From: Candidatus Magasanikiibacteriota bacterium
GTDB taxonomy: Bacteria > Patescibacteriota > Patescibacteriia > Magasanikbacterales > UBA922
DNA length: 52,802 bases
Assembly (NCBI GenBank): GCA_018661775.1
Contig: JABJHO010000051.1
Span: 1-52,802, forward strand
Direction: 5' to 3'
The position numbers and the translations under genes are program-made. The notes under the pieces were generated by a model. The model did not search any database. It was given only the letters and a program-made list of their open reading frames with translations, and had not been told where the DNA came from. Of the stretch, positions 27,056-43,220 are shown in pieces; position 1 is the first letter of the stretch; the number at the start of each line of letters is the position of its first letter.

Positions 27056-27095
27056 TATTGACCTGATTACATTTTTAGTATAATATACTTTTACT

Positions 27096-29984
27096 ATGAA
27101 AATTAAGGAAAAAATGAAAAAATATACAAAACTAGGTCATTTAAGTATTTTTTTTAGTTTGGCCGCTTTGTTTATTGGTAGTATTTTTTTCTATTTTTTT
27201 GCAAATAACTCTGGCAAAAAGACAGTCCAAGAAAAATTACCTAAGATTGTGGCAGAGTGTTTTGTAAGTTTAAGAAATAAAATTCAAGATTTAAAATATA
27301 TATCCCGTGATTTTTCCGAATCAAATTTACCGGTGTATGAGTTAAATATTTCTAAAGAAAATTTAAAAAAATTAGAAGACAATTTACCTAACCTAGAGGC
27401 GCGTAGACTGGAGGATGATTATGCTCTTGGGGTGGATGAGAGGATGGGGGATGGTAGTAGAATTTATGTGCCAGCAGAATTTATATTTGATAATAAAATA
27501 TATGAAGTGGAGGTGCGTTATCGTGGGAATAGTGCGCCGCATTGGTCAGAAGAAAAAAAATCAATGAGAATTAGATTTCCAAAAGATGATTTGTTTTTTG
27601 GAAAGCGTGATATAAATTTTATAATCCCTTTAGACAGGTATTATCTGGCAGAGGAATTTAATAATTATAGGGCTAGAAAAATGGGGTTAGTTGTGCCAGA
27701 TAGTAAGTTTGTTGGTATAAAAATAAACGGAAAGCAAGAGGCATTGTACTGGGAAGTTGAGCATTTTTCAAAGGAATTTTTAGAAACCCATAATTTAAGT
27801 GGAGACATGGATTTGTATGGTGAGGGTGATACATTTCAACAAAAAATATACACAGATATAAATTATTGGCAAAAATACGTTGAAGACCCTCTAAAAGCTA
27901 AAAATAATTACACTCCTTTGGAAATTTATTTATCATTTTTAAATGAGGCACCGGAAGAAGTATTTAATAAATATATTTTTGATTTGATTGATAAAGATAA
28001 TTTCTATACTTGGACAATTCATAATTTGTTATCAGGAAGTTTACATCAAGATTATTCTCATAATATAAGAATGGTATTTGATAAAAGTGTTGGGAAATTT
28101 AAAATATTTCCATGGGATTTGTATGTTTATGATTATAGTGTAAAAGTTTTGGACATAGACTCGGCTCTAGAGGCTACTAGAAATCCACTTGTAGGTCGTG
28201 TACTGAGTAATCCTGAGTTTATGCATGAGAGGAATCAGATGATGTGGGAGTATGTAGAAAATAAAGATAATTTAAAGGAGGGTCTAAAAACGTATGATGA
28301 ACTTTTTGTGTCTACCCAGAAGACTTTTTATAATGATCCAATAAGAAATCGTTCTTATAAATTTTTTGAAAATGAAGTTGGAAGGACGAGATCAAATATT
28401 GAAAAGAATTTTAATAGAATTAGAAAATTATTTACTAATGGGGAGGCAAGTTTTGTATTCTCAAACAAATTACATAATAATGAATTAGAATTATCTTTAT
28501 CTAATTTTAATTCAGTTTCCCCGGCATATTTAAGTGAGATTGAATTAACTTTTAAAGAAGAGACCTTAGTATTATTTGATGTATTATTTGATGGTAAAAA
28601 AGTTTGTGATGCTAATGAGGCAGAAATTGATGAGGATAAAAATAGGATAAAATTAAAATGTGATAGGCTAGATATTTTTCCAAGATTGACAAAATATGTT
28701 CCAGATATAAATGATATAGAATATTACGCTAAAGAAATATTTGTTGTGCAGAAGAATAAAAATCTTTTTCTCTTAATTCCAAGAGAACAAATTTTGTTGA
28801 ATGATGTGGAAAAAATTAAAATTGAAGTGCGAAATTCAAATACAGATAAAAAGTTTGATGAAGTGAGTGGGGTGTTTGTTGATAATACAGAATTTACTAA
28901 TTTTTATGATATTTCAAAAACACCACAAGAATTTACATCAGAAAATAAAAGATTTTATTTAAATGGAAATGAAATAGTGTTACCAGCTGGACTGCATATA
29001 TTTTCTGATAATTTAGTAATTCCACGTAATACAAAATTAACTATATTACCTGGAGCAACTATTAATTTAATTAATAATGCTTCTTTTGTTTCATATAGTC
29101 CGGTGATTGCCAAAGGTAATCCTAGTGACAATATTATCGTTCGTGGAGAGGGTGACGGAGTGGGTGAGAATTTTGCCGTGTTAGATAATATTGGCTTGAG
29201 TGAATTTGAATATGTGGAATTTTCTGGAGGTGGGGAGTCAACGGTAAACGGGGCTTTCTTTTCTGGCATGCTTGCAATTCATCATGCAGACAGTATTATT
29301 AAATATTGTAAATTTGAAAATGCCGCAGGGGATGACGCATTAAATATAAAATATGCTTCAAGTACTGTTGCACATAATTCATTTGTCGCAAATTCAGCTG
29401 ACGCAATTGATTATGATTTTTCTAATGGTGTAATTGAGTATAATAAGTTTATTGATAACGGTAATGATAGCATTGACACGTCAGGTTCGCCGGTTTTAAT
29501 ACAATTTAATGAAATTATAAATTCCGGCGATAAGTGTATTAGTTCAGGCGAAAAATCTACTTCAGTAATATTTAATAATATTTTACATGGCTGCTATATT
29601 GGTATTGAGGTGAAAGATTTATCAGAACCGACTATTATTAATAACGTGATTGTTCATAACGATATAGGTATAAATGAATATCAGAAAAAAGAGATATTCG
29701 GTGGCGGAAAAGGAAGGGTATATAACACGATAATTTGGGATAATAAGGAAAGTATTATGCTAGATAAGGTATCAACCATTGAAGTCTATAACAGTGATGT
29801 AGAGAGTGGTTATGACGGAAAAGGTAATTTTGACAAGGAACCTGTTTTTCTTGAAGGCTTTACAAATAGTGAAAAAGACGCTATCATAAAGTTCAAGACA
29901 GGTGGTAATGGCGATATTTTGAAGGAAGTGTTGGGGGTAGGTTTGGATGAAGTTCCTGTTGGTCTGGTATATGGTTTTAAATAA
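27096..29984 (+). CDS. CotH-family kinase-fold protein fused to a C-terminal right-handed beta-helix domain, membrane anchored
   Basis: Paralogue of the upstream gene ('YVPAEFIFDNKIYEVEVRYRGNSAPHWSEEKKSMRIRF', 'HQDYSHNIRMVFDKSVGKFKIFPWDL'). The C-terminal ~330 aa show periodic 'N.F..N..D(A/S)ID' / 'N.I..N' repeats typical of PbH1 parallel beta-helices. Confidence 0.7.
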   Translation: MKIKEKMKKYTKLGHLSIFFSLAALFIGSIFFYFFANNSGKKTVQEKLPKIVAECFVSLRNKIQDLKYISRDFSESNLPVYELNISKENLKKLEDNLPNLEARRLEDDYALGVDERMGDGSRIYVPAEFIFDNKIYEVEVRYRGNSAPHWSEEKKSMRIRFPKDDLFFGKRDINFIIPLDRYYLAEEFNNYRARKMGLVVPDSKFVGIKINGKQEALYWEVEHFSKEFLETHNLSGDMDLYGEGDTFQQKIYTDINYWQKYVEDPLKAKNNYTPLEIYLSFLNEAPEEVFNKYIFDLIDKDNFYTWTIHNLLSGSLHQDYSHNIRMVFDKSVGKFKIFPWDLYVYDYSVKVLDIDSALEATRNPLVGRVLSNPEFMHERNQMMWEYVENKDNLKEGLKTYDELFVSTQKTFYNDPIRNRSYKFFENEVGRTRSNIEKNFNRIRKLFTNGEASFVFSNKLHNNELELSLSNFNSVSPAYLSEIELTFKEETLVLFDVLFDGKKVCDANEAEIDEDKNRIKLKCDRLDIFPRLTKYVPDINDIEYYAKEIFVVQKNKNLFLLIPREQILLNDVEKIKIEVRNSNTDKKFDEVSGVFVDNTEFTNFYDISKTPQEFTSENKRFYLNGNEIVLPAGLHIFSDNLVIPRNTKLTILPGATINLINNASFVSYSPVIAKGNPSDNIIVRGEGDGVGENFAVLDNIGLSEFEYVEFSGGGESTVNGAFFSGMLAIHHADSIIKYCKFENAAGDDALNIKYASSTVAHNSFVANSADAIDYDFSNGVIEYNKFIDNGNDSIDTSGSPVLIQFNEIINSGDKCISSGEKSTSVIFNNILHGCYIGIEVKDLSEPTIINNVIVHNDIGINEYQKKEIFGGGKGRVYNTIIWDNKESIMLDKVSTIEVYNSDVESGYDGKGNFDKEPVFLEGFTNSEKDAIIKFKTGGNGDILKEVLGVGLDEVPVGLVYGFK

Positions 29985-30059
29985 GTTATATGAGTGCACT
30001 CAAACTGCATTCATTCAGGAATAATTTAGGGTAAGTTCTAACCATTTATTCATTTGTTT

Positions 30060-30881
30060 ATGAATCCGAAATTACATTTTCAGAGATTTGAATTTAAGTA
30101 TTTAATTACCACAGATTTAGAATTGGAAATTAAGAAAAGAATTGCACCTTACATTAAAAAAGACCCATTTGTTGCAAAAAATAAAAATGGAATGTATGAA
30201 GTGATAAGTTTGTATTATGATAGTCCAGGATTCTATTATTATAGACAAAAAATAGATGGAGTGTTAAAAAGAAAAAAAGTACGGTTAAGGGTGTATAGGA
30301 ATAATAGTGAATTCATCAAATATGCATTTTTTGAAATAAAAAGAAGGTATGACGCTGTTATTTTAAAAGATAGGTTTTTGATCAGTATAGAAGATTATGA
30401 TAAGCTTATCAAAAATGATGATTTTCACAGTACTGTTGCAATACGTGATCAGAATAGAAAAAATATTATTGAAGAATTTGAGTGGGAACAGCATTTGCGA
30501 TCGATTGGTCCTAAGGTTTTAGTTAATTATGACCGTGAACCGTATCTAGGTATATATAATGAAAATTTTAGAATAACGTTTGATAAAAATATAAAAGCAA
30601 TTCAAAATGATAATTTGTTCTATAAAGGAAATGATTTTGAAGATATCTCTGGAAATCATACTGTAATGGAAGTGAAGTTTAATGGTTCTTTACCACATTA
30701 TGTGAGTGAAATTATAAAAGAGTTTGATTTACAGAGAATTTCATATTCAAAATATTGCCATGCAATTGAATCTACAGGATGTATATCAGCCTATGATTTT
30801 CCAAAAACAAAAGGTATTGTGGATGCAAAGGAGAGTATATTAGAAAGAAGTAGAGTGTCAAATGGAAATTTTGGGTTTTAG
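30060..30881 (+). CDS. VTC-domain (polyphosphate polymerase / triphosphate-tunnel fold) protein
   Basis: 'FQRFEFKYLI', 'YEVISLYYDSPGFYYY', 'KRKKVRLRVY', 'FFEIKRR' and 'HTVMEVKF' match the alternating basic/acidic beta-strand pattern of VTC/CYTH tunnels. No hydrophobic helix. ATG 30060 preferred over TTG 30054. Confidence 0.75.
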   Translation: MNPKLHFQRFEFKYLITTDLELEIKKRIAPYIKKDPFVAKNKNGMYEVISLYYDSPGFYYYRQKIDGVLKRKKVRLRVYRNNSEFIKYAFFEIKRRYDAVILKDRFLISIEDYDKLIKNDDFHSTVAIRDQNRKNIIEEFEWEQHLRSIGPKVLVNYDREPYLGIYNENFRITFDKNIKAIQNDNLFYKGNDFEDISGNHTVMEVKFNGSLPHYVSEIIKEFDLQRISYSKYCHAIESTGCISAYDFPKTKGIVDAKESILERSRVSNGNFGF

Positions 30882-30916
30882 TATAATAGATTAATATTTA
30901 ATTAATAACATAGTAT

Positions 30917-31594
30917 ATGACAGAATTGTTTTCAGGAGGATTGATATCATATTCAATACCACAAATTGTATTGAATATAGTAGTGACATTTGTATTGTCA
31001 TTTGTTATAGCTCTTGTGTATAAAAAGACACACAAAGGTTTATCTTATTCTCAGTCGTTTGTTTTCACTCTAGTGTTAATGAGTGTGATTGTGTCTGTTG
31101 TTATGATGATAATTGGTAATAGTCTTGCGCGTGCCTTTGGTCTTTTGGGGGCTTTTTCCATTATTAGATTTCGTACTGCAGTGAAAGATACAAAAGATAC
31201 TGGGTATATCTTTTTTGCACTTGCAATTGGTATGGCCGTGGGAACCGGTAGTTATAATATAGCAGTGGTTGGAACCATATTAATCTTGTTGGTGATATTG
31301 ATTTTAGATAAAATTAATTTTGGTTCAATGAGAAAGCATGAGTATCTATTATCTTTTGTCGTTAATCATGATGAAGGTGCGGGGAACACTTTTGAGGGGG
31401 TATTTAAAAAATATTTAAAAAATATTATGCTTTTAAATATTAACTCAAAACGTGATGGTAAAGCAGCAGAAATGACATATCATGCAAGTTTTGTTGATGA
31501 GGACAAGAAAGAAGAATTTGTAAGAGAGTTATCCGGAATGAGTGGAGTGGAAAAAGTTCACCTTATTACTTCAAAGGAGGATGTAGAATATTAA
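30917..31594 (+). CDS. DUF4956-family multi-pass membrane protein
   Basis: Several hydrophobic helices, the conserved-looking 'ARAFGLLGAFSIIRFRTAVKDTKDTGYIFFALAIGMAVGTG', and a soluble ~90-aa C-terminal domain. Confidence 0.7.
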   Translation: MTELFSGGLISYSIPQIVLNIVVTFVLSFVIALVYKKTHKGLSYSQSFVFTLVLMSVIVSVVMMIIGNSLARAFGLLGAFSIIRFRTAVKDTKDTGYIFFALAIGMAVGTGSYNIAVVGTILILLVILILDKINFGSMRKHEYLLSFVVNHDEGAGNTFEGVFKKYLKNIMLLNINSKRDGKAAEMTYHASFVDEDKKEEFVRELSGMSGVEKVHLITSKEDVEY

Positions 31595-31609
31595 AAATAA
31601 TGTAATAAA

Positions 31610-31640
31610 AAATCTCAGATTAAACTGAGATTTTTTTATT
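31610..31640 (+). terminator. Rho-independent terminator ending the CotH/VTC/DUF4956 block
   Basis: Perfect 8-bp stem aatctcag / ctgagatt (31611-31618 and 31625-31632), 6-nt loop, then a T7 run. Confidence 0.7.
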
Positions 31641-31896
31641 TTCTTTTTTTGAAAATAAACAGATGATTGACATGGTTACTGGAAAAAGAATATCGCACCC
31701 AAATAAGATAGTATTTGGGAATATATTAATGAAAAAATTTTAAGCTATTATTTGCCGCACCAAGGGTTTGGTGGTTTTATTAACCCAGACAATGACAGTA
31801 ATGGGCGTGACTTATGCTTGGGTTGGTTTTTCATAACTCTCCAAAAGGGTTTGTGTAGTAAGTGATTAAGGGTATTCTGAACTAGTGTCTAACTAA

Positions 31897-31923
31897 ACAA
31901 AAAAGCATTAAATATCTAATGCT
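31897..31923 (-). terminator. Rho-independent terminator downstream of the giant minus-strand gene
   Basis: Stem agcatta / taatgct (31904-31910 and 31917-31923). On the minus strand it is followed by TTTTTTG (plus-strand A-run 31899-31904). It lies 63 nt past the stop at 31986. Confidence 0.55.
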
Positions 31924-31985
31924 TTGTGGTACTATGTAAAATAGGACTTTGTATGGGTGAGATGCTTGGTTTTTCTCACAGAGGG

Positions 31986-34900
31986 TCAAGGGAGTGGTCT
32001 GGAGAGGCGTGCTCCAATGGCGTCGTTCCGACGTGAAGGGGCTGAACTGTCGCGGCGCGCAGCACGAAGATCATCCGTACTGTTGTGCCACGCACCACCC
32101 CGACCTATCCGGCGGACGCTATTGTCTAGGCAATTTTCTAAGATACAGTATGCACTGCCATCTATCGGTGCATTGTTATAATTATTTACATATGCATCCA
32201 AAACCCACTCCCTCACGTTGCCTGCAAGGTCACAGAGTCCTTGCTCGCTATTTCCTGCCTCATAAGTGCATACCGTGCTTGTGCCCAGTCCCTCTACACA
32301 CCCCATGCTATTGTTTACGTTGTCCCAGTCTGTTCGGTTGCAGTCTGGCGCTTCGTCTCCCCATGGGTATGCGAAATCTTGGCCACCGCTCCGAGCGGCA
32401 AATTCCCACTGAGCTTCGCTTGGAAGTTCAGCACCAATCCATGCCCCAAAAACACGCATTTGCTCGAAGCTCACATAATTGACAGGGTGCTCTTCTCTTC
32501 CGTGTGTGTAATTGCAGGATAGCCACTCATAAGATTCGCTTTCGTTGTTACAGTCTGGCTCTGAACATTCTCCTGCGCTTACACAAGTTCGGTACTGAGC
32601 AACTGTCACCTCATTTCGCATCATCTCGAAGCTAGGAACATTGACCTCATGTTGAGGGTGTTCATTACTTGCCCCAACCCCTTCTGGGGATCCCATCATA
32701 AAGCTACCACCCTCGATGCGCACCCAAATTATTTCAGGGCAGTTAGGGGAGCAGGGCATGTGGTGACACTCAACCCCCTCATCAACCTCACCATCACAAT
32801 CATTATCAAGTCCATCACAAATCTCTTCGGCTGGAAGGATTTCTCCAACACATGCGCCAAATTGACCGTCAGAACAAGATCGTAATCCTGATTGGCAGAT
32901 CCCAACATTCTCTGTATCCGGGTTGCCGGTGTAACAGACAATATCATCAATACCGTTGTCGAGGGTTCCATCGCAGTCATTGTCGAGGCCGTCGCAGATT
33001 TCATTGTCGTCTGGGTCACCAGGAATGCAGACATCTTCGACACTTCCGTTGTTACACGTTCGTGCACCTTGTCTGGCACAAATACCAGTTCCGCAGATAA
33101 TCACTGTTGGGTCGAAGTAGTCGTTGTCGATTTCACCATCGCAGTTATTGTCGAGCCCATCACAACTTTCATCTGTGGCTGCGGGTGGGTGACCTGGTGT
33201 GCACGCTTCTTGGATTTCTCCATTTTCGTCGCACAGAAGTTCACCATCTCGCTGACAGACACCAACGCCACATGTGGTAGGAATTGGAGAAAATTGATCA
33301 GGATCGCAACATGTTTCATCTGCGACACCGTCACAGTTATTATCTAACTCATCGCAAATGTCTATCTCTTCGGGTTGGCCTGGAATAGCATTGCATAGTG
33401 CCTGTGTAGGGTCTTCTGGGTTACAGATTATAATACCAGGTCGACTACAGATGCCTAGACCATTATTACATAGCACGCCAAGATTAAAACCGTTGTCACG
33501 AGTACCATCACAATTGTTGTCGATTCCATCACAGAGCTCCTCTACAGGATCTCCGGGAATACAATCACGAATAGTCACACTATTTTCGCAGCGAGTTTGA
33601 GCCTCTTCCAAACATGCACCAATACCGCAGGTAATGATTTCGGACACAAAGTCTTCGTCAATTCGCATGTCACAGTCTTCGTCTAATCCATTGCAGATAT
33701 CTATATCCCCAGCTTGGCCAGGAGTACAGGTGTCAACGGGTTGACCATTGATGCAGTCTACTTCACCAGTGCTTTGGCATATACCTGCACCACATACGGT
33801 GGGCATAGCAACAAAGCCTTCGTCAGCGCGACCATCACAATCCTCGTCACTATTGTTACAGGTTGTGTCTTCTAGTATCGCTTCTCCTGGAGTGCAAGAG
33901 TCAAGAATATTTCCGTTGTTGCAAGAAGTAAGACCATCGTTTGTGCAGACACCACGACCGCAAACAGTAATAACGGGCATATATACTTCATCAGTGTTTC
34001 CGTCGCAGTCATTGTCGATATTGTTACATTGGCTATCTGGTGTTGCAAGGTCAATATTTGGTGTACAGTTATCCACTATATTCCCGTTTTCACATGAAGT
34101 GAGTCCAGTTGTAGCGCAGACACCAAATCCGCAAGTGGTTTGCTCTTGTGTTACATCCTCGTCGATTCGACCGTCACAATCTTGATCGAGTCCATCGCAG
34201 GTGTCATCTTCATTGCTCAGTGGGTCTCCAGCTTCGCAGCTATCTTCCACTTCGCCACCAACACATGATGTTTCACCTTGTCGCGCACAGACGCCGGTAC
34301 CACAAATAGTTTGGATTGAATCATAATTTCCCACAATACAACCACAGTTTTCATCTACCGATCCATCACAGTTTTCGTCTTGTTCACTATTGTCGCACAG
34401 TTCTTGTTCGCCTGGTGGAATAATTGGCGCAGTGCAGATTTCCATATTACCCATACAGATAATCTCTCCTCCTGCAGCGCAAATACCAGAAGCATTATTT
34501 GTACATGCTTGTCCCACTTGGTCTGTGTTATCCACCACCTCGTCACAGTCATTATCCAATCCATCACAGATTTCTGCTTGGGGTTGGGTTTGGTTAACAC
34601 ATGTGCTATCCCAGCCTCCGTCAGAGCATGTCTCAAAACCGTCTGTACAGATACCGGTATCACGAGTTTGTGAAGGGCCGGTATAACAAGGACGTGTAGC
34701 TCCATTCTCGCAGCTATCTGTATCGCCTTCACAAACAAAGTCTGCAGTCCAGTTGCCCTGCACACATGTTTGCACAAGAGTACCACTGTTATTTCTGCCG
34801 CATGTATTTGGAAATCGGCGCTGAGAGTCATTATTGCACTCATCAGGATCTTCACAAGGCTGGATTTCCCAGGCACCTGTAACACAGAGTTCAATTTCTC

Positions 34901-35903
34901 TTCCTCGGCTATTAACACCACAAACTTCTCCTGTGTAGCGAAATGCTTCATCACGGCATATATCAGGATCATCACATGCGGTAAACACGAGTTCGTGTTC
35001 ATAATTACAGCGCACTGTTTGAATACCTCTGTTATTGAGACCACATTGTTCGTTTCTTGGGAACTCGCTAGTTTGGTTACACTCTGCACCTTCTATGATG
35101 CAAGGGAGGTTTCTCCATTGTCCCGCTTCACACACTTGTGTCATTGTACCGTTAGTTCCACAAACAATGTCTTGTGTCTCGTCATTGGTACATACAGCAC
35201 CATCTTCGCAGGAGTATTCTCCCCAGTTTCCATCGCTCAAGCATTGTCGGCGGAGTACGCCAGTATTATTAAGTCCGCATGAATCACCAAACCCCGTAAT
35301 ACCTGCTGGTTGACACGCAACTGCACAGCCTTCATTGACGATACCATTACAGTTATCATCTTGGTTATTTGTACACTCTTCTCTTTCGAGCGCGTCTTCA
35401 TTCCAATTCACAGTACATTCACTACCATCATCTGGCATGAACTCTATAACATTGTGTTCACCGCGTATAATGTCGGTGGTGTCTGTAAATACCACGATGC
35501 AGGAATTTGTACACGACGAGTGTGCGCTATAATTGTCGCAGGCTGCCTCGGTTATTTCATTCTGAAAGAAGAATAGGGCGCTTGCTACTTGCCCTGCCAA
35601 AGAAATATTTGTTTCTGCGCTTAGGATAGGCTCTTCTCCGGTAAATGTAACAAGCGTGGTCCATTTGGAACCAGCCGCATCTTCGTGCACAAGGCATCCG
35701 GTAAGAAAGGAGTCCATGGCTATGTCAGGTTGTTGCGATCGTATACGGTTTTGACAGCTTGGTTCTTCTCGGGGAATACACATGCGTGTTTCAGTTGTGT
35801 AGTGTGTATTATAGTCGAGTAGATCAAAGTTTGGATTTTTGTCGACACACCCTTGGATGTAAAGGAAAAAAAGTGTCACGATTAAGTGAAGTGTATGTCT
35901 CAT
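31986..35903 (-). CDS. Giant secreted/lipoprotein-like Cys-rich repeat protein with C-terminal FGE-sulfatase-fold domain
   Basis: Uninterrupted 1321-codon frame. The ATG at 35903 is preferred over the GTG at 35951: it has an AGAGGA 4 nt upstream and is followed by a signal/lipobox-like 'MRHTLHLIVTLFFLYIQGC'. The frame holds about 11 'C(D/N)GxD(N/E/Q)(D/N)CDG' modules. The C-terminus reads 'IEGGSFMMGSPE...HPVNYVSF...AQWEFAARSG...GNVREWV...RGGAW', which is the FGE-sulfatase (SUMF1/EgtB/PvdO) family. Confidence 0.85.
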   Translation of the reverse strand: MRHTLHLIVTLFFLYIQGCVDKNPNFDLLDYNTHYTTETRMCIPREEPSCQNRIRSQQPDIAMDSFLTGCLVHEDAAGSKWTTLVTFTGEEPILSAETNISLAGQVASALFFFQNEITEAACDNYSAHSSCTNSCIVVFTDTTDIIRGEHNVIEFMPDDGSECTVNWNEDALEREECTNNQDDNCNGIVNEGCAVACQPAGITGFGDSCGLNNTGVLRRQCLSDGNWGEYSCEDGAVCTNDETQDIVCGTNGTMTQVCEAGQWRNLPCIIEGAECNQTSEFPRNEQCGLNNRGIQTVRCNYEHELVFTACDDPDICRDEAFRYTGEVCGVNSRGREIELCVTGAWEIQPCEDPDECNNDSQRRFPNTCGRNNSGTLVQTCVQGNWTADFVCEGDTDSCENGATRPCYTGPSQTRDTGICTDGFETCSDGGWDSTCVNQTQPQAEICDGLDNDCDEVVDNTDQVGQACTNNASGICAAGGEIICMGNMEICTAPIIPPGEQELCDNSEQDENCDGSVDENCGCIVGNYDSIQTICGTGVCARQGETSCVGGEVEDSCEAGDPLSNEDDTCDGLDQDCDGRIDEDVTQEQTTCGFGVCATTGLTSCENGNIVDNCTPNIDLATPDSQCNNIDNDCDGNTDEVYMPVITVCGRGVCTNDGLTSCNNGNILDSCTPGEAILEDTTCNNSDEDCDGRADEGFVAMPTVCGAGICQSTGEVDCINGQPVDTCTPGQAGDIDICNGLDEDCDMRIDEDFVSEIITCGIGACLEEAQTRCENSVTIRDCIPGDPVEELCDGIDNNCDGTRDNGFNLGVLCNNGLGICSRPGIIICNPEDPTQALCNAIPGQPEEIDICDELDNNCDGVADETCCDPDQFSPIPTTCGVGVCQRDGELLCDENGEIQEACTPGHPPAATDESCDGLDNNCDGEIDNDYFDPTVIICGTGICARQGARTCNNGSVEDVCIPGDPDDNEICDGLDNDCDGTLDNGIDDIVCYTGNPDTENVGICQSGLRSCSDGQFGACVGEILPAEEICDGLDNDCDGEVDEGVECHHMPCSPNCPEIIWVRIEGGSFMMGSPEGVGASNEHPQHEVNVPSFEMMRNEVTVAQYRTCVSAGECSEPDCNNESESYEWLSCNYTHGREEHPVNYVSFEQMRVFGAWIGAELPSEAQWEFAARSGGQDFAYPWGDEAPDCNRTDWDNVNNSMGCVEGLGTSTVCTYEAGNSEQGLCDLAGNVREWVLDAYVNNYNNAPIDGSAYCILENCLDNSVRRIGRGGAWHNSTDDLRAARRDSSAPSRRNDAIGARLSRPLP
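31989..32741 (-). other. FGE-sulfatase (formylglycine-generating-enzyme fold / C-type-lectin-like) domain of the giant protein
   Basis: Last ~251 residues, with the motifs listed above. The segment after 'RGGAW' ('HNSTDDLRAARRDSSAPSRRNDAIGARL') contains no cysteine. Confidence 0.85.
32772..34568 (-). repeat. Intragenic array of ~11 degenerate 54-66-aa Cys-rich modules (MopE-like acidic CDGxDNDCDG motif plus CGxGxC...C...C.PG knot)
   Basis: Motif cysteines start at protein residues 462, 519, 585, 642, 698, 753, 807, 866, 930, 986 and 1045 (numbering from the 1321-aa track ORF). Example: 32790-32819 and 32967-32996 both encode CDGLDNDCDG. Confidence 0.8.
34710..35279 (-). repeat. Second intragenic repeat type: five ~40-45-aa 'CG.N..G....C..G.W....C.D...C' modules
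   Basis: 'SCGLNNTGVLRRQCLSDGNWGEYSCEDGAVC', 'VCGTNGTMTQVCEAGQWRNLPCIIEGAEC', 'QCGLNNRGIQTVRCNYEHELVFTACDDPDIC', 'VCGVNSRGREIELCVTGAWEIQPCEDPDEC', 'TCGRNNSGTLVQTCVQGNWTADFVCEGDTDSC'. Confidence 0.6.
35847..35903 (-). other. Signal peptide with lipobox-like cleavage site of the giant protein
   Basis: 'MRHTLHLIVTLFFLYIQG|C': a basic residue, a hydrophobic core, then I-Q-G-C. Gln at position -2 is non-canonical. Confidence 0.45.
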
Positions 35904-35957
35904 ACTGTCCTCTTTTCTGTTTTTGAAAGAACGAAAAACGTGCGTTTGCACCCTTAT

Positions 35958-35986
35958 GTTTTACCATAAAAATAGCTTTTTGTCAA
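35958..35986 (-). promoter_or_regulatory. Candidate sigma70-type promoter of the giant gene
   Basis: Minus strand reads TTGACA (35986-35981), a 17-nt spacer, then TGgTAAAAC (extended -10; hexamer 35963-35958). The predicted TSS falls near the GTG at 35951, which supports the ATG at 35903 as the start. Confidence 0.4.
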
Positions 35987-36035
35987 TTAACATATAGGTG
36001 AGATGTATTGTGACCACTTCTTTTTGTAAATGTTG

Positions 36036-36064
36036 TTGACTAGGAGTGTAAAAAAGCGTAGTAT
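36036..36064 (+). promoter_or_regulatory. Candidate sigma70-type promoter of the dehydrogenase/epimerase operon
   Basis: TTGACT (36036-36041), 17-nt spacer, TAGTAT (36059-36064), about 38 nt upstream of the ATG at 36103. Confidence 0.4.
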
Positions 36065-36102
36065 ATACCTATAATAATACATATAATTATCAGGTAGGTA
36101 GT

Positions 36103-37479
36103 ATGAATATTCTCTATATCGGTGGCGGATTTGTTGGCGCGTGTTCTGCAGCAGTGTCTGCAGCCAGCGGCCACAATATCCTTGTGTTTGACATAGACAC
36201 AGAAAAAATAAAAAAACTCGGGGCAAAAGACAGAAACATCATAGAATCCTGCTTGTTTGAAAAAGGCCTAGGAGACCTTTTGGTGCAACACAGTGATCGA
36301 ATTACCTTTTCGAGCGATTACGCCGATCTAGAGGTGTTTTTGGACGCCTGTGACGTGGTATTTATGTGCTTGCCAACCCCAGAAATTGGTGAAACCGGAG
36401 AAAGCGATGTGTCATACTATGTAGGCGCAGCAGAGAAGTTGGCGTCATCGTTAATAAAACGCAATAAAGGAAAGCAAGAACGATATGTGGTAATTGTAAA
36501 CAAAAGCACCGTGCCAATAGACATGATAGACCGAACCGAAGAAATACTGGATGCAGCTGGTGTAAAGAATTATGGTGTGGTATCCAATCCAGAGTTTTTG
36601 GTAGAAGGAAAGGCGGTGCAAAATTCTCTGAAGCCAGACCGCGTCGTGGTTGGGGCAAAGACAGAAAAAGATTTTGCTGTTATGCGAGAAGTATATCAGC
36701 GGTTTTTTGATGCCACAGATATTGTGTATTTAGAAGTGAATCCAAAAGAAGCTGCTGCCGGAAAGTTGCTTGCAAATTTTTATTTGTTTAATAAACTTGG
36801 CGTGTGCTTTGATGTGGTTGGGCGGACCTGTGAAGCATTTGATGGAATTCAGTTTGAAAAAGTACGCAAAATTCTTGCAAGCGATGTGCGTATAGGAAAT
36901 TGGGGATTTTATAACAGTATGTATGCCGGAGGAAGTTGTTTTATTAAAGATGCTCGCTCACTTTCTCATCAATTACAAAAAGCTGGGAAAGCGGCCTGTT
37001 TGGTAGAAGAAACTTATTTGGCAAACAAGCGTCAGCTTACCTTATTTTTATCCCGAGCCAAGACCGAGGCAGGTATATCATGGAAAGACAAAACGGTGGC
37101 ACTTGTGGGATTAGCGTTTAAGCGTGACACCAATGATGTGCGTAATTCACCAAGTATAGATATTATGCATATGTTAGAAGAAGAGGGGGTGGGGCATGTG
37201 TACGCGTACGATCCAGCAGCCAAAGATGTCTTTGCAAAACTCTTTCCTGCTAGCCAAACACTCACATATGTTGACCATGAATATGATGCGGTTACACGGG
37301 CTGATGTGGTAATTATTGCCACAGATTGGCCACAGTTTCGTGGGCTTGGAGATATGATTATTGCACACGGATCTACACCACTTGTGATGGATGGGCGCCG
37401 TATGCTACAACACAGATATGAGGATATGATTGCGGCGGGCTGCAGCATTATTGCCGTTGGAAGCCCATATTTTTCATAA
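36103..37479 (+). CDS. ugd: UDP-glucose/GDP-mannose dehydrogenase family; UDP-glucose 6-dehydrogenase-like
   Basis: 'ILYIGGGFVGACSAAVSAASGHNILVFDID', catalytic Cys in 'GGSCFIKDARSL', and 'GLAFKRDTNDVRNSP'. Confidence 0.8.
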   Translation: MNILYIGGGFVGACSAAVSAASGHNILVFDIDTEKIKKLGAKDRNIIESCLFEKGLGDLLVQHSDRITFSSDYADLEVFLDACDVVFMCLPTPEIGETGESDVSYYVGAAEKLASSLIKRNKGKQERYVVIVNKSTVPIDMIDRTEEILDAAGVKNYGVVSNPEFLVEGKAVQNSLKPDRVVVGAKTEKDFAVMREVYQRFFDATDIVYLEVNPKEAAAGKLLANFYLFNKLGVCFDVVGRTCEAFDGIQFEKVRKILASDVRIGNWGFYNSMYAGGSCFIKDARSLSHQLQKAGKAACLVEETYLANKRQLTLFLSRAKTEAGISWKDKTVALVGLAFKRDTNDVRNSPSIDIMHMLEEEGVGHVYAYDPAAKDVFAKLFPASQTLTYVDHEYDAVTRADVVIIATDWPQFRGLGDMIIAHGSTPLVMDGRRMLQHRYEDMIAAGCSIIAVGSPYFS

Positions 37480-37488
37480 AAATGTATC

Positions 37489-38790
37489 ATGATTACTTTT
37501 GAACAATTAGAAAAAAAAGAAGAACAGATTGCCGTAGTTGGTTTGGGGTATGTTGGGTTACCACTTGCGGTGCTTTTGGCAAAACATTTTTCTGTTATTG
37601 GGTATGATGTTGACGCAAAAAAAATTGCACAACTCACCGCCGGAGAGGATAAAACCGGAGAAGTGTCGCAGGCTGAGCTAAAAGAAGCACATATTACATA
37701 CACCACAAATCCAGAAGCACTAAAAAACGCAAAATATATTATTATTTCGGTACCAACCCCAATTGATGAAAGTAATCAGCCGGATTTGCGTACACTAAAA
37801 AGTGCAACAAAAACTGTTGCACAGCATCTACAAAAAGGGAGTATTGTGGTATATGAATCAACGGTCTATCCGGGAGTTACCGAAGATATTTGTGTACCAA
37901 TTATAGAAGAGATTTCTGGTTTGGTGTGCCAAAAAGATTTTTGGGTTGGGTATTCTCCAGAGCGAGTAAATCCAGGAGACAAAGAGCATACTATAGACAA
38001 TATTACAAAAGTTGTTTCGGCAATAGATGAGATGTCTCTTGCTGTGGTATCACAGGTCTATGGCACAATTACAGAAACATTTGCAGCAACATCAATCCGC
38101 GTGGCAGAAGCCGCAAAAGCAATAGAAAATGCCCAAAGAGATGTTAATATTGCGTTTATGAACGAGCTTGCCATGTTGTTTACCAAAATGGGTATAAGTG
38201 TTCATGAGGTGTTAGACGCGGCAAAAACAAAATGGAATTTCCTTCCGTTTTCCCCAGGGCTTGTTGGTGGACATTGTATTGGTGTTGATCCATATTATTT
38301 AACCCATAAAGCAAGTGCGGTAGGGCATTATCCGGAAGTTATTTTGTCTGGCAGAAGAATTAATGACTCGATGCACAAGTTTATTGCACATGAAATGATA
38401 AAAAAGATGATTGCTAGTGGCATAGATATTTGTAATGCAACAGTAGTGTTGTATGGTATAACATTTAAAGAAAATGTGCCAGATATTCGTAATTCAAAAG
38501 TGGTAGAACTGTATAAAGAATTGGTATCTTTTGGCGTAAGTCCAATAGTGCATGACCCAATTGCTCACCCAGAAGACATGAAAAATGAATATGGTATTAC
38601 GCTTACCAAAAAAGATGATTTACCAAAAGCGGATGCGGTTATTTTTGCCGTTCCGCACAAAGAGTTTGTTGCGTATACGACAAAAGATATAATACATACA
38701 GTAAAAAGTGGTGGATTGATTGCAGACATAAAGCGCATGTGTAATAAAAAAGACATAGAAGATGCTGGCTTGCATTATTGGGGAATGTAG
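37489..38790 (+). CDS. Nucleotide-sugar dehydrogenase of the UDP-HexNAc 6-dehydrogenase type (WbpO/TviB/Cap5O-like)
   Basis: 'IAVVGLGYVGLPLAVLLAKHFSVIGYDVDAKKIAQL', 'GGHCIGVDPYYL' and 'GITFKENVPDIRNSK'. Confidence 0.85.
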   Translation: MITFEQLEKKEEQIAVVGLGYVGLPLAVLLAKHFSVIGYDVDAKKIAQLTAGEDKTGEVSQAELKEAHITYTTNPEALKNAKYIIISVPTPIDESNQPDLRTLKSATKTVAQHLQKGSIVVYESTVYPGVTEDICVPIIEEISGLVCQKDFWVGYSPERVNPGDKEHTIDNITKVVSAIDEMSLAVVSQVYGTITETFAATSIRVAEAAKAIENAQRDVNIAFMNELAMLFTKMGISVHEVLDAAKTKWNFLPFSPGLVGGHCIGVDPYYLTHKASAVGHYPEVILSGRRINDSMHKFIAHEMIKKMIASGIDICNATVVLYGITFKENVPDIRNSKVVELYKELVSFGVSPIVHDPIAHPEDMKNEYGITLTKKDDLPKADAVIFAVPHKEFVAYTTKDIIHTVKSGGLIADIKRMCNKKDIEDAGLHYWGM

Positions 38791-38829
38791 TTGTATACTT
38801 TATTCTATAAACCAATTAATTATTTTTAT

Positions 38830-39738
38830 ATGAAATATCTTGTTACCGGCGGTGCCGGTTTTATAGGAACTAATATTGTGATTCGTTTGAAAAAAGATGG
38901 ACATGATGTTGTGGTTTTAGACAATTACTGTGCCGGAAAAAAAGAAGACCATATTCAAGATGGTGTAACGTATATTGAAGGAGATATTCGTGATTTAGAC
39001 ACATGTAAAAAAGCAATGGAAGGTGTTGATGGTGTATTTCATGAAGCTGCCGTACCGCGTGTTACGTATTCGGTAGAGCATCCCGTAGAAACACATGATA
39101 ATAATGTAAATGGAACACTCAATGTACTTGTTGCGGCAAAAGATACGGGAGTAAAACGAGTAGTATTTGCCACGTCTTCTTCGGTTTTTGGGTGTGATGA
39201 GAAGATTGACCTGAAAGAAGATATGCCAAAACGACCAAAAACTCCGTATGCGCTACACAAACTGGCTGGACAAGAATATTGCCGGTTATTTTCTGAGTTG
39301 TATGGATTAGAAACGGTGTCACTGTGTTATTATAATATTTATGGACCATATCTTGATCCAAATGGGGCGTATGCACTTGTCATTGGAAAGTTTTTACAAC
39401 AGAAAAAAGAGGGAAAACCAATGACGATCTGTGGTGACGGTGAATTTTTTAGAGATTATACGCATGTGAGTGACGCTGTCGAGGCAAATATCTTGGCCAT
39501 GACAAAAGATACGGTAGGCAAGGGAGAGATGATTAATATAGGAAATAATAATCCCGTTTCGGTAAACAGACTCGTAGAACTGATTGGTGGGGAATCAGTA
39601 AACGTCGCCGAGCGACCAGGAGATCCACGATACGCCTGTGCCGACAACACAAAAGCAAAAGAATTACTCGGCTGGAGCCCAACCATAGAAATAGAAGAGG
39701 GGATACGACAAATGAAAGACTATTTTGACTTGGCGTAA
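38830..39738 (+). CDS. NAD-dependent sugar-nucleotide 4-epimerase (WbpP/TviC-like SDR)
   Basis: 'KYLVTGGAGFIGTNIV' and 'YALHKLAGQ' (YxxxK). The track starts at TTG 38791; the ATG at 38830 gives the canonical N-terminus. Confidence 0.8.
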   Translation: MKYLVTGGAGFIGTNIVIRLKKDGHDVVVLDNYCAGKKEDHIQDGVTYIEGDIRDLDTCKKAMEGVDGVFHEAAVPRVTYSVEHPVETHDNNVNGTLNVLVAAKDTGVKRVVFATSSSVFGCDEKIDLKEDMPKRPKTPYALHKLAGQEYCRLFSELYGLETVSLCYYNIYGPYLDPNGAYALVIGKFLQQKKEGKPMTICGDGEFFRDYTHVSDAVEANILAMTKDTVGKGEMINIGNNNPVSVNRLVELIGGESVNVAERPGDPRYACADNTKAKELLGWSPTIEIEEGIRQMKDYFDLA

Positions 39739-39748
39739 TTGAAGAATA

Positions 39749-39778
39749 TAAAAACAGCACATTGATGCTGTTTTTTTG
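39749..39778. terminator. Bidirectional rho-independent terminator between the convergent epimerase and folD genes
   Basis: aaaaACAGCAcattgaTGCTGTttttttt: 6-bp GC-containing stem, with an A-run on one side and a T-run on the other. Confidence 0.7.
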
Positions 39779-39779
39779 T

Positions 39780-40619
39780 CTATTTGGAGCTCTTTGCACA
39801 AACCACGGTATTGTATAACAATCTTGCCACAGTGATTGGTCCAATACCGCCAGGAGTTGGAGTAACGCGAGCACCTTTTTCATCTATTTCTTGCACGTGT
39901 ACGTCACCATACATTTTACCGTCTTCAAAATCAACACCAGTGTCAATAACAATGGCATCTTTTTTTACCATATCGCCTCGGAGTGTATCTTTTTTGCCCA
40001 CGCCAGTCACAATAATATCTGCGGCCAAACATTTTTCTTTTGTATCGCGTGTCGCGCTATTGCACGTGGTAACGCTTGCACGTTTGTTCATGAGTATAAT
40101 CGCAAGTGGTTTGCCAACCAGCGCACCAACACCAATTATCGTTACATTTTTTCCGGCAGGCTCAATATTTATTGACTCAAGCACAGACATAACCGCACCA
40201 GGAGTTGGTGGAATAATCAACTCATCTTTCATAACGAGTTTTCCTAAATTTACATTTGTTAAGCAGTCTATATCTTTTTTTGGATCAATGGCATTAAGCA
40301 CGGTGTTTGTATCTAAGTGTTTTGGAAGAGGAAGTTGCACAATAAGACCATGAAGGTGTGGGTTTGATTGAATGTCTTGTAATGTAGCAAGAAGTTCGTC
40401 TTGTGTAACATGTTCTGGAAGTTCGTAGATGGCGCAACCAATACCAACCCTCTCTGCAGCTTCTTTCTTTTTGCGTACGTATGTGTGAGATGGTTTGTCC
40501 TCACCAACAAGAATGACGGCCATTGCTGGTGCTATACCTTCTTTTTTGCATAACTCTACTTCTTGTGCGGTAGTTGCTAAAATAGACTCTGCGATCGGTT
40601 TTCCAAATAGTTTTGGCAT
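39780..40619 (-). CDS. folD: Bifunctional methylenetetrahydrofolate dehydrogenase/cyclohydrolase
   Basis: 'GIAPAMAVILVGEDKPSHTYVRKKKEAAERVGI', 'HGLIVQLPLP', 'PPTPGAVM' and 'TPTPGGIGPITVA'. Start set at the internal ATG (MPKLFGK...). Confidence 0.9.
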   Translation of the reverse strand: MPKLFGKPIAESILATTAQEVELCKKEGIAPAMAVILVGEDKPSHTYVRKKKEAAERVGIGCAIYELPEHVTQDELLATLQDIQSNPHLHGLIVQLPLPKHLDTNTVLNAIDPKKDIDCLTNVNLGKLVMKDELIIPPTPGAVMSVLESINIEPAGKNVTIIGVGALVGKPLAIILMNKRASVTTCNSATRDTKEKCLAADIIVTGVGKKDTLRGDMVKKDAIVIDTGVDFEDGKMYGDVHVQEIDEKGARVTPTPGGIGPITVARLLYNTVVCAKSSK

Positions 40620-40737
40620 AAAAAGCTGATTATTGTGGGTTATATACTTGTATAATAGCAAAAATAGCGAGTAATGCAATATTGTTTGTGTGTATTGCCT
40701 GTGTTACAATACAGTATATATATGTAGAAATAACACC

Positions 40738-42516: not shown

Positions 42517-42524
42517 GAGTGTAT

Positions 42525-42556
42525 AAAAAAACCAAGAAAGTATCTTGGTTTTTTCT
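42525..42556. terminator. Bidirectional terminator between the PBP gene and the tRNA pair
   Basis: aaaaaaACCAAGAaagtaTCTTGGTttttt: 7-bp stem flanked by an A-run and a T-run. Confidence 0.6.
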
Positions 42557-42558
42557 TG

Positions 42559-42632
42559 TGTCAAGGGGGAGAATTGAACTCCCGACCTCCGGGTTATGAA
42601 TCCGACGCTCTAACCATCTGAGCTACCCTGAC
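42559..42632 (-). tRNA. tRNA with CAU anticodon (elongator Met, or Ile2 if lysidinylated)
   Basis: Hand-folded 74-nt cloverleaf: GTCAGGG-TA-GCTC-AGATGGTTA-GAGC-G-TCGGA-TTCATAA-CCCGG-AGGTC-GGGAG-TTCAATT-CTCCC-CCTTGAC-A. The G1:C72 pair argues against an initiator. No encoded CCA. Confidence 0.85.
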
Positions 42633-42637
42633 ATGTG

Positions 42638-42709: not shown

Positions 42710-42724
42710 ATTTCTAGTGGTAAT

Positions 42725-42753: not shown

Positions 42754-42754
42754 T

Positions 42755-42788: not shown

Positions 42789-42792
42789 TGGA

Positions 42793-43209: not shown

Positions 43210-43220
43210 TCATATCTTTT

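Follow-up and report, generated by a model that had tools for sequence, protein, structure and literature searches.

The window analysed here is a 52.8-kb stretch of the genome of a Ca. Magasanikbacteria bacterium (contig JABJHO010000051.1 of assembly GCA_018661775.1, positions 1 to 52,802), a member of the Candidate Phyla Radiation (CPR; Patescibacteria). Its gene at 31986–35903 on the minus strand encodes a giant cysteine-rich protein that we interpret, with moderate confidence, as a surface-anchored stalk stiffened by Ca2+ and disulfide bonds and tipped by a non-catalytic binding head of the formylglycine-generating enzyme (FGE) fold, with a Myxococcota-like ancestry and a long residence at a hotspot. 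The architecture of the protein, the lack of the FGE catalytic cysteines, the integrity of the gene, its codon fit to the host, the identity of that host, the variability of the locus and the taxonomy of the named relatives are firmly established; lipidation, disulfides, Ca2+ binding, an adhesin function and the direction and age of the transfer are inferred.

According to this interpretation, the protein would be exported and anchored by Cys19 on the cell surface of a marine Ca. Magasanikbacteria bacterium, where about 18 disulfide-bonded modules (five CGxN, two CYTG, and eleven MopE modules with knots or hairpins, named after their motifs) would form a long, acidic, rod-like stalk. The DxDxDG loops of the MopE modules are predicted to stiffen the stalk by binding Ca2+, a plentiful ion in seawater. 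The stalk in turn would present the FGE/C-type-lectin-like domain, a head that most likely serves to bind a ligand, either glycan or protein, on a host cell or particle. The building blocks, most clearly the head, would have been obtained by horizontal transfer from Myxococcota-like bacteria, and the gene would have been resident long enough to take on host codon usage at a fixed site next to the glycan genes for UDP-glucose dehydrogenase (UGDH), at which alleles diverge or give way to others far faster than the surrounding genome changes. An adhesin or receptor-binding role is most likely, with allele turnover arising from host-range or arms-race pressure, and we retain the adhesin or ligand-binding surface role in a symbiont-like organism of small genome, proposed in the initial annotation of this DNA, as the best functional guess.

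Protein architecture

The open reading frame (ORF) was confirmed with an ATG start at 35903. An alternative GTG start lies 16 codons upstream (35951) and would extend the product to 1321 residues; position 35903 is the likely start, since a GAGGA box lies ahead of it and the aligned position in the relative L085 is also ATG (handles beginning with L and P denote contigs and matched proteins). The protein contains 115 cysteines (8.8%), 18.7% Asp plus Glu, 1.1% His and two lysines, at positions 22 and 80. Its cluster representative, P0001, differs by one residue (D780N) and carries the NCBI label 'MAG: formylglycine-generating enzyme family protein [Candidatus Magasanikbacteria bacterium]', MAG standing for metagenome-assembled genome. 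Pfam searches and motif maps recovered all five parts described in the initial annotation, namely a lipoprotein signal, a region of ~155 residues, CGxN modules, MopE motifs and an FGE-fold C-terminus (Table 1). The long shadow ORFs it had reported are likewise present (five, of 116–244 residues), and its location was correct; it gave no strand.

Table 1 Features of the cysteine-rich gene and its borders (window coordinates)
Feature	Coordinates	Strand	Basis or remark
Complete coding sequence	31986..35903	minus	1305 residues; stop codon 31986-31988
Signal peptide with lipobox-like end (MRHTLHLIVTLFFLYIQG before Cys)	35847..35903	minus	Cys19 is the putative lipidated residue
Lineage-restricted N-terminal domain, residues 20-175	35379..35846	minus	holds both lysines of the protein
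First degenerate MopE-like motif CTNNQDDNCNGIVNEGC, residues 177-193	35325..35375	minus	motif map
Five ~40-residue four-Cys modules CGxNxxGxxxxxCxxGxWxxxxC(x)DPDxC, residues 205-400	34704..35291	minus	motif map
CYTG module CYTGP...G.C..G...C..G.W..C, residues 401-445	34569..34703	minus	by sequence
Array of 11 MopE (DxDxDG-type acidic) motifs	32766..34568	minus	Pfam PF11617 E=6.6e-37, regular expression, DNA repeats, AlphaFold2
C-terminal FGE-sulfatase-fold (C-type-lectin-like) domain, residues 1060-1300	32004..32726	minus	Pfam E=8.9e-46
Non-coding 391-bp spacer at the 3' end of the gene	31595..31985		GC step; terminator of convergent DUF4956 at 31607-31636
Divergent intergenic region with UGDH1	35904..36102		36000-36100 is a strain-variant breakpoint

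The N-terminal sequence MRHTLHLIVTLFFLYIQGC has the appearance of a signal peptide followed by a lipobox. Bacterial lipoproteins typically combine a basic n-region, a hydrophobic h-region and a lipobox of the form [LVI][ASTVI][GAS]C within the first ~35 residues; here MRH is followed by TLHLIVTLFFLY and then by IQG-C19, which fits at positions -3 and -1 and is atypical in having Q at -2. The equivalent of Cys19 is kept in relatives, there within canonical lipoboxes (ISGC in the L085 allele, VSGC in the L102 orthologue and SGGC in the L088 analogue), and because a signal peptide is combined with a conserved lipobox cysteine, the protein is probably lipid-anchored through this residue. Neither Lgt nor LspA is encoded among the annotated ORFs of the window. 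The domain that follows appears restricted to this lineage: among the matches listed from 1.84 billion representative proteins, only P0241 (59% identity) shares residues ~20–175 besides P0001, no Pfam or NCBIfam family matched it, and a PDB sequence search with the N-terminal 426 residues gave nothing usable.

The stalk begins with a degenerate MopE-like motif, whose equivalent in the L102 orthologue (CSDNIDNNCDGRIDENC) occupies the same relative place. The five CGxN modules begin at residues 209, 248, 287, 328 and 368, three of them strict and two degenerate. Residues 20–401 matched 286 representative clusters (E<=1e-3) and, among the matches listed, all but P0001 and P0241 cover the CGxN region only. 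The module (CG(L/V)N(G/N)RG...C..G.W...C.DPD.C) is itself a widespread repeat, occurring in one protein in at least 11 copies and elsewhere fused to sulfatase, PMP-repeat and receptor-L domains, although no Pfam or NCBIfam model and no PDB entry matched it. The CYTG module has a second copy at residues ~990–1018, within the MopE array, and this module type predominates in the top match, P0002.

In the MopE array, seven motifs are followed by a three-strand CGxGxC knot, two by a hairpin variant and one by the CYTG module. In the protein as a whole, ten motifs are of the strict form C(D/N)GxDNDCDG and two are degenerate (at residue 503 and the MopE-like motif at 177). The protein belongs to PF11617 by a wide margin (125.8 bits against a cutoff of 27, in eight stretches). 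A MopE motif and its CGxGxC knot together form a unit of ~57 residues with six cysteines, all invariant, which would presumably pair into three disulfides per unit. The 51-nt core of the motif recurs seven times in the DNA at a spacing of 162–177 nt or multiples thereof, and since the copies are only 61–78% identical the repeats are old. The AlphaFold2 (AF2) model of one unit consists of an irregular acidic loop and a three-stranded sheet (pLDDT 87), while a four-unit model reached a pLDDT of 80 and a pTM of 0.40, a value that fits a beads-on-a-string rod.

Binding of Ca2+ by the acidic loops is suggested by analogy. An alignment of 47 modules gave D9-x-[DN]11-C-[DN]13-G-x-x-D17 with D9 and D17 invariant, which reproduces the D-x-D-x-D-G-x-x-D spacing of oxygen ligands in DxDxDG/TSP3-like clusters. 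The PF11617 consensus was aligned with the C-rich region of teneurins by Tucker et al. (PMC3278476), and in the 1.5-Å structure of the teneurin-4 C-rich region those acidic positions hold three Ca2+ ions in a manner resembling TSP3 and LDL-receptor class A (LA) modules, with Ca2+-dependent stability (PMC9058538). The resemblance of the acidic motif to MopE-type and LA repeats, noted from the sequence at the outset, is supported by the match to PF11617 and by an acidic cluster that is framed by presumed disulfides, as in teneurin C-rich, TSP3 and LA modules. Unlike in those proteins, however, the likeness covers only a motif of ~15 residues, and the cysteine pattern and the three-strand knot differ. 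No PDB match supported it further: Foldseek comparison of the AF2 module models with the PDB returned noise only (E>=0.2 and E>=4), and a PDB sequence search with the MopE region found no MopE entry and nothing below E=0.46 (a TRAP TSR).

The locus in other strains and species

P0241 is encoded on a JGI contig (L085) with the same gene order as the window (HU, PBP2, FolD, epimerase, UGDH2, UGDH1, gene). The flanks of the two contigs are closely similar, with proteins 95.7–98.9% and DNA ~96% identical, but the gene itself shares ~65% DNA and 58% protein identity, the drop extending from the intergenic region at ~36,000–36,100 through the gene. The L085 allele nevertheless keeps the gene-proximal promoter-like block and the lipobox cysteine. 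Sample Ga0163108 yielded two further contigs, of which L086 follows the window allele and L098 is 97.7% identical only from 36063 rightwards, with an unrelated 285-residue gene to the left. The ORF that replaces the cysteine-rich gene there (L098:74–931, plus strand) is BKACE/DUF849-like as judged by eye, no family search having been made. In L086 a 100-bp block (36000–36100) is only 50–59% identical to the window between sides that are 92–100% identical, suggesting mosaic recombination in the regulatory region.

The site is also occupied in a different species, represented by a TARA scaffold (L102) with the same synteny, an RNase Y 82% identical to that of the window and flanking DNA at 73–83%. 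Its occupant is a lipoprotein of 1409 residues (MKTFFALIIITLVSGC) with ~30% protein identity and no FGE domain on record, in which the module order of the window recurs (unique N-terminal domain, MopE-like, CGxN-like, CYSG, MopE with hairpin or knot). GC at third codon positions (GC3) is 0.406 in this orthologue versus 0.23–0.29 in 16 neighbouring genes. Three contigs from three samples (L087–L089), whose host is probably a more distant relative of the window organism, keep the UGDH1–UGDH2–epimerase synteny with a UGDH1 that is 66% identical. At the same junction, upstream of UGDH1, they carry a three-gene block (L088:4573–9361). Its products are a 682-residue lipoprotein that has a MopE motif and ends in an FGE domain, a 560-residue Ser/Thr kinase and a TPR protein. 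With a GC content of 56–60% and a GC3 of 0.71–0.82, against 0.17–0.36 in its flanks, this block is unmistakably a recent high-GC island. The FGE domain of L088 is 34% identical to the window head and 36–40% identical to Myxococcota-type sequences, so the two are not orthologues.

Combined, the loci on L085, L086, L098, L102 and L087–L089 indicate that the gene has occupied one fixed site in the clade for a long time, that allele turnover at this site far outpaces change in the core genome, and that the site receives high-GC foreign cassettes of the same functional type. As far as sequence comparison can tell, the import of the gene is not recent and the gene has long been resident in the Magasanikbacteria clade.

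Relatives and ancestry

Besides the near-identical P0001, the best whole-protein matches listed are 27–38% identical over ~50% of the query, in the MopE region only, and those with names belong to Myxococcales, Bradymonadia, Deltaproteobacteria and Planctomycetota. Eight of the matches listed combine PF11617 and PF03781 in one chain (P0015, P0041, P0073, P0077, P0087, P0088, P0097 and P0116). A search with the FGE head alone (best 120 of 1466 matches) gave closer relatives: the best matches listed are full-length and 52–58% identical, in small lipoproteins with a PC.PNCP lead-in and conserved cysteines, and those with names all belong to Myxococcota, Polyangia or Deltaproteobacteria. A scan of named genomes (best 80 of 532) was led by Bradymonadia (44%), Myxococcales/Myxococcota (38%) and Oligoflexales (38%), with no Patescibacteria among those 80. 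RNase Y, 7 kb from the gene, has named best matches (66–82% identity) that are all Magasanikbacteria or Patescibacteria, which marks the right flank as genuine CPR chromosome. This divergence among the best matches listed, RNase Y pointing to Magasanikbacteria while the head and the MopE array point to Myxococcota, Bradymonadia and Deltaproteobacteria, is the pattern expected of horizontal acquisition, and a foreign ancestry of the gene appears likely, most clearly for the FGE head. The transfer would have run towards the Magasanikbacteria and would be old.

These results also settle several points of the initial annotation. Its comparison with Myxococcota- or Planctomycetota-style secreted proteins agrees with the named relatives listed, which are overwhelmingly Myxococcota, Bradymonadia, Deltaproteobacteria and Planctomycetota. 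Its description of the gene as foreign to this genome holds for ancestry, best for the FGE head, and fails both for a recent insert and as a deduction from GC content. The homologues in relatives that it had named as the observation that would speak against foreignness do exist in part, as the L085 allele, the strain-level assemblies and the L102 orthologue. The suggestion that such an architecture is atypical of AT-rich small genomes has to be given up: since similar proteins, cysteine-rich and variable, have been reported in other CPR bacteria (PMC4736985), it is not alien to such genomes, and positional orthologues occur here as well.

A native origin is one alternative to consider. The gene could belong to a vertically inherited CPR surface family, with the Myxococcota likeness due to ancient shared modules or to reverse transfer and the unusual composition due to function. 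Codon usage is host-like (see below), relatives hold a positional orthologue and an allele, giant cysteine-rich proteins are known in other CPR bacteria, and MopE modules with knots occur on an archaeal-looking contig (P0005 on L003). We nevertheless regard this explanation as improbable, although it deserves to be kept in mind. The head is 52–58% identical to Myxococcota-type small lipoproteins and only 34% to the putative relative L088; it is unrecorded in the L102 orthologue and deviates in GC3; the best 80 named genomes include no Patescibacteria; and the ratio K/(K+R) is typical of high-GC homologues, whereas low-GC homologues use Lys.

The component modules are scattered widely. The nearest MopE-plus-knot modules were found in P0005 (on an archaeal-marker contig), P0057 (on a Gram-negative contig) and P0023. 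P0005 (L003:4653–10619; 1988 residues) has the most similar ones, in 12 copies, together with a C-terminal transmembrane anchor, and its contig encodes the archaeal markers DUF1616 and an aIF5B-type IF2; the same module type may therefore serve the surface proteins of small archaea. MopE-type modules are also present on 51 IMG/VR 'viral' contigs (L116–L166), which could be a transfer vehicle or misclassified. One of these contigs, which stems from the same metagenome as L085 (3300008735), encodes a 739-residue protein whose N-terminus is lipoprotein-like and whose MopE and CYTG repeats are followed by a C-terminal region free of repeats (L122:4050–6269). Three tandem FGE-sulfatase paralogues of 407, 438 and 428 residues, 46% identical to the window head, lie on L114 (3217–7416), from a genome that is Gram-negative by its sigma-54 activator and MlaD, and show local expansion of the lipoprotein subfamily in putative donor lineages. 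An apparent co-location of the FGE match P0160 with a Patescibacteria RNase Y was rejected, the contig of P0160 being Gram-negative (sigma-54 activator, MlaD).

The FGE-fold head

The C-terminal domain matches PF03781 with 157 bits against a cutoff of 23.3 and over profile positions 5–253 of 255. It is preceded by the conserved motif PCSPNCP and keeps the GNVxEW and RGG motifs of FGE-fold proteins. Its FGE-fold matches in the PDB have E-values of 1e-10 to 3e-18, with PvdO (5hha) the closest; there is also a weak match to 5aoh, deposited as 'Spore coat protein CotH'. Catalytic FGEs are defined by two active-site cysteines in the segment RGGS(Y/F)xCHxSYCxRYR. Aligned to Streptomyces coelicolor FGE (6muj), the head has gaps at both, RGGSYLCHDSYCNRYR being replaced by RGGAW-HNS-TDDLRAARR, and its nearest homologues likewise read RGGxW rather than RGGSYLC at the catalytic-Cys site. 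A catalytic FGE (SUMF1) was accordingly rejected, as were the PvdO, GldK/PorK, EgtB and SenA equivalogs, for which the NCBIfam score/cutoff pairs were 82/500, 71/350, 61/360 and 54/420 bits. Non-catalytic users of the fold are found among the PDB matches, namely the ring lipoprotein PorK/GldK and the variable protein TvpA. Because the FGE catalytic cysteines are absent, the head most likely has a binding role for a glycan or protein ligand.

That the protein is instead an envelope enzyme, in which the repeats merely position a catalytic FGE-fold domain (a PvdO- or EgtB-like oxidoreductase, or a modifier of glycans or peptides produced by the adjacent glycan/CotH cluster), seems to us rather unlikely. 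The idea draws on the identity of the best PDB and NCBIfam matches, which are enzymes (PvdO, FGE, EgtB, SenA and CalU17), and on the location of the gene amid glycan-biosynthesis genes and beside two CotH kinases. It is countered by the loss of both catalytic cysteines, by equivalog scores 5–25 times below the cutoffs, by the existence of non-catalytic uses of the fold (PorK/GldK, TvpA), and by the orientation of the gene, which is convergent and not co-transcribed with the CotH/VTC genes. The protein also lacks the DinB or iron-binding N-domain of EgtB or OvoA, Pfam having found no DinB-like N-domain in the protein.

Composition and the age of a probable import

The gene has a GC content of 47.1% (N-terminal part 44%, repeats 46–47%, FGE domain 52%), compared with ~31% in the left and ~41% in the right flank, and the GC step falls exactly at its 3' end. 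By codon position, GC1 is 0.56, GC2 0.47 and GC3 0.384, the right-flank range of GC3 being 0.28–0.40, and the excess over the right flank resides mostly in positions 1 and 2. Re-encoding the protein with the synonymous frequencies of the right flank predicts a GC content of 45.6% and a GC3 of 0.350. The codon log-likelihood of -1.073 per codon under a right-flank model is within the range of native genes, and the codon log-likelihood ratio is +0.144, where native genes of the right flank span +0.02 to +0.22 and genes of the left flank -0.16 to +0.03. In simulations, the N-terminal domain had a GC3 z-score of +2.0, the CGxN modules one of -0.7, the MopE array one of +0.7 and the FGE domain (GC3 = 0.479) one of +3.9; the whole gene has z=2.6, against a calibration of -2.6 to +3.4 from 14 right-flank genes. 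Deviant synonymous sites, as a recent island would carry, are thus confined to the FGE domain. The GC excess of the gene is largely an effect of amino acid composition, and at silent sites the head domain alone is compositionally odd.

The initial annotation had correctly reported a GC content above both flanks, but this does not argue for foreignness, since composition and host codon usage together already predict 45.6%. The right flank, at ~41%, is not AT-rich, and the codon-usage comparison it proposed shows that the synonymous usage of the gene matches that of the adjacent housekeeping genes. A GC excess of 6–16 points can evidently arise almost wholly from an extreme composition (Cys, Gly and Asp, no Lys), and is no evidence of recent transfer unless synonymous sites are examined.

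A striking feature of this composition is the near absence of lysine. The ratio K/(K+R) is 0.04 in the gene versus 0.50–0.93 in all 42 neighbouring genes, and residues 81–1305 (31989–35663, minus strand) contain no Lys in 1225 residues, whereas neighbouring proteins contain 4–13%. High-GC homologues share this depletion, while low-GC homologues hold 5–9% Lys; of the Arg codons of the gene, 80% are CGN. A relic of the donor does not fully satisfy as an explanation, because the synonymous sites are host-like, and selection against Lys is possible.

We also consider it unlikely that the whole gene was recently inserted from a Myxococcota or Planctomycetota donor of high GC and has yet to adapt to its host. 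Such an event would account for the GC difference to both flanks, the near absence of Lys, best named relatives listed outside CPR and the deviant GC3 of the FGE domain (z=3.9), and L087–L089 do carry, at the same junction, an island of this type that is high in GC and clearly recent. Yet over ~80% of its length the gene cannot be told apart from neighbouring housekeeping genes by synonymous usage or GC3, and most of the GC is predicted from composition. Moreover, the same locus and module order occur in a species with an 82%-identical RNase Y (L102), a close relative carries a 58%-identical allele (L085), and the surroundings of the gene revealed neither an integrase nor a tRNA-adjacent att site nor flanking repeats.

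Chromosomal setting and remaining alternatives

The gene sits exactly on the step between two domains of the window. The left domain (1–31.6 kb; ~31% GC, GC3 0.19–0.36, very strong positive GC skew of 0.3–0.43) is a glycan and nonulosonic-acid cluster with glycosyltransferases, PMT-like enzymes, a flippase, PseB/PseC-like proteins, two NeuB and a CMP-transferase, followed by two CotH kinases, VTC and DUF4956. These last genes (25328–31594), one of whose CotH-kinase products has a beta-helix/NosD region, are convergent with the cysteine-rich gene. The right domain (36–52.8 kb; ~41% GC, GC3 0.28–0.40) holds housekeeping genes (FolD, PBP2, tRNA-Met/Glu, HU, RNase Y, Fmt and Def) interleaved with glycan genes (two UGDH, an epimerase, a flippase, GT1, GT2 and Wzy). 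The layout of a low-GC NeuB/CysDN cluster, an island and a UGDH cluster is also seen in L088 and is apparently a conserved regional feature. A promoter-like block, TTGACA-N17-TAAAAC (~35935–35990, minus strand), lies proximal to the gene and is conserved between alleles; a general scan of promoters and terminators gave counts at chance level.

The contiguity of the region is well supported. Contig JABITW010000033.1 (L001) aligns without gaps to window positions 29045–45903 and differs by 18 clustered single-nucleotide polymorphisms (SNPs) over 16.9 kb, and these differences mark it as an independent population in which both junctions are intact. At least five other assemblies (L001/L108, L105, L106, L107 and JGI 3300072015) reproduce both junctions; among those repeating the gene order are a second NCBI MAG (GCA_018701615.1), a JGI contig of 45.7 kb and two marine scaffolds from ENA. 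A marine habitat is indicated by the related records, which are TARA and other marine scaffolds. Some assemblies break inside the gene (L086, L106, L107 and L085), as expected of a repeat-rich and strain-variable sequence, and apparent length variants of 1292 (L107) and 550 residues (L106) were dismissed as genes cut by contig ends. Between the window and L001, six synonymous SNPs fall within 106 bp of DUF4956 (31054–31159) and three within 13 bp of the cysteine-rich gene (34779–34791), a clustering that suggests short recombination tracts between co-existing strains.

Copper capture in the manner of MopE/CorA of methanotrophs is suggested by the Pfam name (Cu-binding_MopE) and the 8–11 copies of its motif, but is very unlikely. 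The likeness to MopE/CorA is limited to the 30-residue motif of PF11617, which covers only a small part of MopE (PMC6189053). The Cu site of MopE consists of two His and a Trp-derived kynurenine (PMC3423442), which have no counterpart here. With a His content of 1.1%, no MopE in the PDB sequence search and no homology beyond the motif, identification as a MopE/CorA copper protein proper was rejected; the acidic cluster of oxygen donors suits Ca2+ better than Cu.

The FGE/C-type-lectin fold is the classic variable-protein fold of diversity-generating retroelements (DGRs), in which CPR genomes are rich. The fold type, a weak PDB match to TvpA of Treponema denticola (2y3c) and the strain-level hypervariability of the gene could suggest that it is a DGR target, but we give this hardly any weight: the 52.8 kb of the window contain no template-repeat copy of the 3' end (31986–32300) and no reverse transcriptase among the annotated ORFs, none of the 18 SNPs relative to L001 falls in the FGE domain, and the variability lies in the N-terminal half and in the whole allele, not in a C-terminal variable region. 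Finally, the 10-point GC step exactly at the 3' end of the gene could reflect a chimeric assembly or mis-binned contig joining a low-GC and a higher-GC genome, a possibility raised at the outset and now excluded for practical purposes, as two MAG contigs at NCBI, a JGI contig and no fewer than two marine ENA scaffolds share both junctions, and L087–L089 have the same layout in three samples.

Weighing the favoured interpretation

Several points weigh against a Ca2+-stiffened stalk with an imported binding head. The lipobox of this allele, IQGC, departs from the usual consensus at -2. The proposed Ca2+ sites rest on a short motif, because no solved structure resembles the modules (Foldseek returned none below E=0.1). 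An FGE fold without the Cys pair may still be an enzyme, given that PvdO is named a dehydrogenase and that domains of the EgtB type have catalytic activity. The best 80 of 532 genomes and 120 of 1466 matches do not prove absence of the parts from CPR, and the affiliation of L087–L089 with Magasanikbacteria depends on three syntenic genes at only ~66% identity. Lastly, an adhesin does not explain the Lys-free residues 81–1305, which are odd beside host-like synonymous sites.

A more far-reaching proposal, which we offer as speculative, is that the site upstream of UGDH1 in marine Magasanikbacteria is a dedicated 'adhesin-swap' hotspot, at which cross-phylum capture of Myxococcota-type parts would rebuild Cys-rich lipoproteins again and again and Lys would be avoided adaptively. 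Fresh high-GC cassettes, such as that of L087–L089, would arrive first, and single heads would then be grafted onto the resident Ca2+/disulfide stalk; the FGE head, which deviates in GC3 and is not on record in L102, would be one of these. The exchangeable head would set the host or particle specificity of the episymbiont, and Lys avoidance over 1225 residues, instead of being left over from the donor, might protect the protein from, say, Lys-specific proteases or Lys-directed modification.

Comparison with known systems and significance

The closest counterparts by description are the large cysteine-rich extracellular proteins of CPR Peribacteria (mean length 1655 residues, 7% Cys, signal peptide), for which weak similarity to Myxococcus Cys-rich repeats, strain variation and a role in attachment were reported or proposed (Anantharaman et al. 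2016, PMC4736985). The window protein shares with them a CPR host, a signal peptide, a length above 1000 residues, 7–9% Cys, weak similarity to Myxococcus Cys-rich repeats, strain variation and a proposed part in attachment. Unlike these, it occurs in marine Magasanikbacteria, a different phylum-level lineage, has a defined grammar of CGxN, MopE-plus-knot and FGE parts, and is encoded by a single-copy gene at a fixed hotspot rather than by a 14-gene cluster. A hypervariable extracellular-protein gene has also been described in a marine Gracilibacterium (bioRxiv 10.1101/595074), and we found nothing specific in the literature on Magasanikbacteria surface proteins.

Outside CPR, the 'MopE-related'/MYXO-CTERM proteins of Myxococcota, Bradymonadia and their relatives resemble the window protein in their PF11617 arrays (27–38% identity over 20–68% of the query), and their high-GC members are similarly acidic and K-poor. 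In contrast to the window protein, none of those listed has the N-terminal domain or the full module order, and the window protein has an N-terminal lipobox anchor instead of MYXO-CTERM and comes from a monoderm-like CPR host with a chromosome of ~40% GC. The head resembles small Myxococcota FGE lipoproteins (P0121–P0143; 47–59% identity over the head) in its PC.PNCP lead-in, six invariant cysteines and RGGxW; one of them, P0125, is labelled 'SUMF1/EgtB/PvdO family nonheme iron enzyme [Myxococcota bacterium]'. These are single-domain proteins of 230–440 residues, whereas the window head is fused to a stalk of ~1050 residues. With FGE, PvdO, EgtB and PorK/GldK themselves the likeness is one of fold family and of the GNVxEW and RGG motifs, the window head having neither the catalytic Cys pair nor a DinB domain.

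The gene adds a well-resolved Magasanikbacteria case to the known giant, cysteine-rich and strain-variable extracellular proteins of CPR bacteria. Although a life in attachment to other cells is generally assumed for these bacteria, few of the molecules that make the contact are known, and the gene supplies a concrete and well-delimited candidate. Its value as such lies in the combination of a putative surface anchor, a predicted rigid stalk and a probable binding head with strain-level allele turnover at a fixed site and apparently imported high-GC parts. It thereby offers a testable handle on the determinants of host range and on how reduced genomes may renew their surface repertoire.

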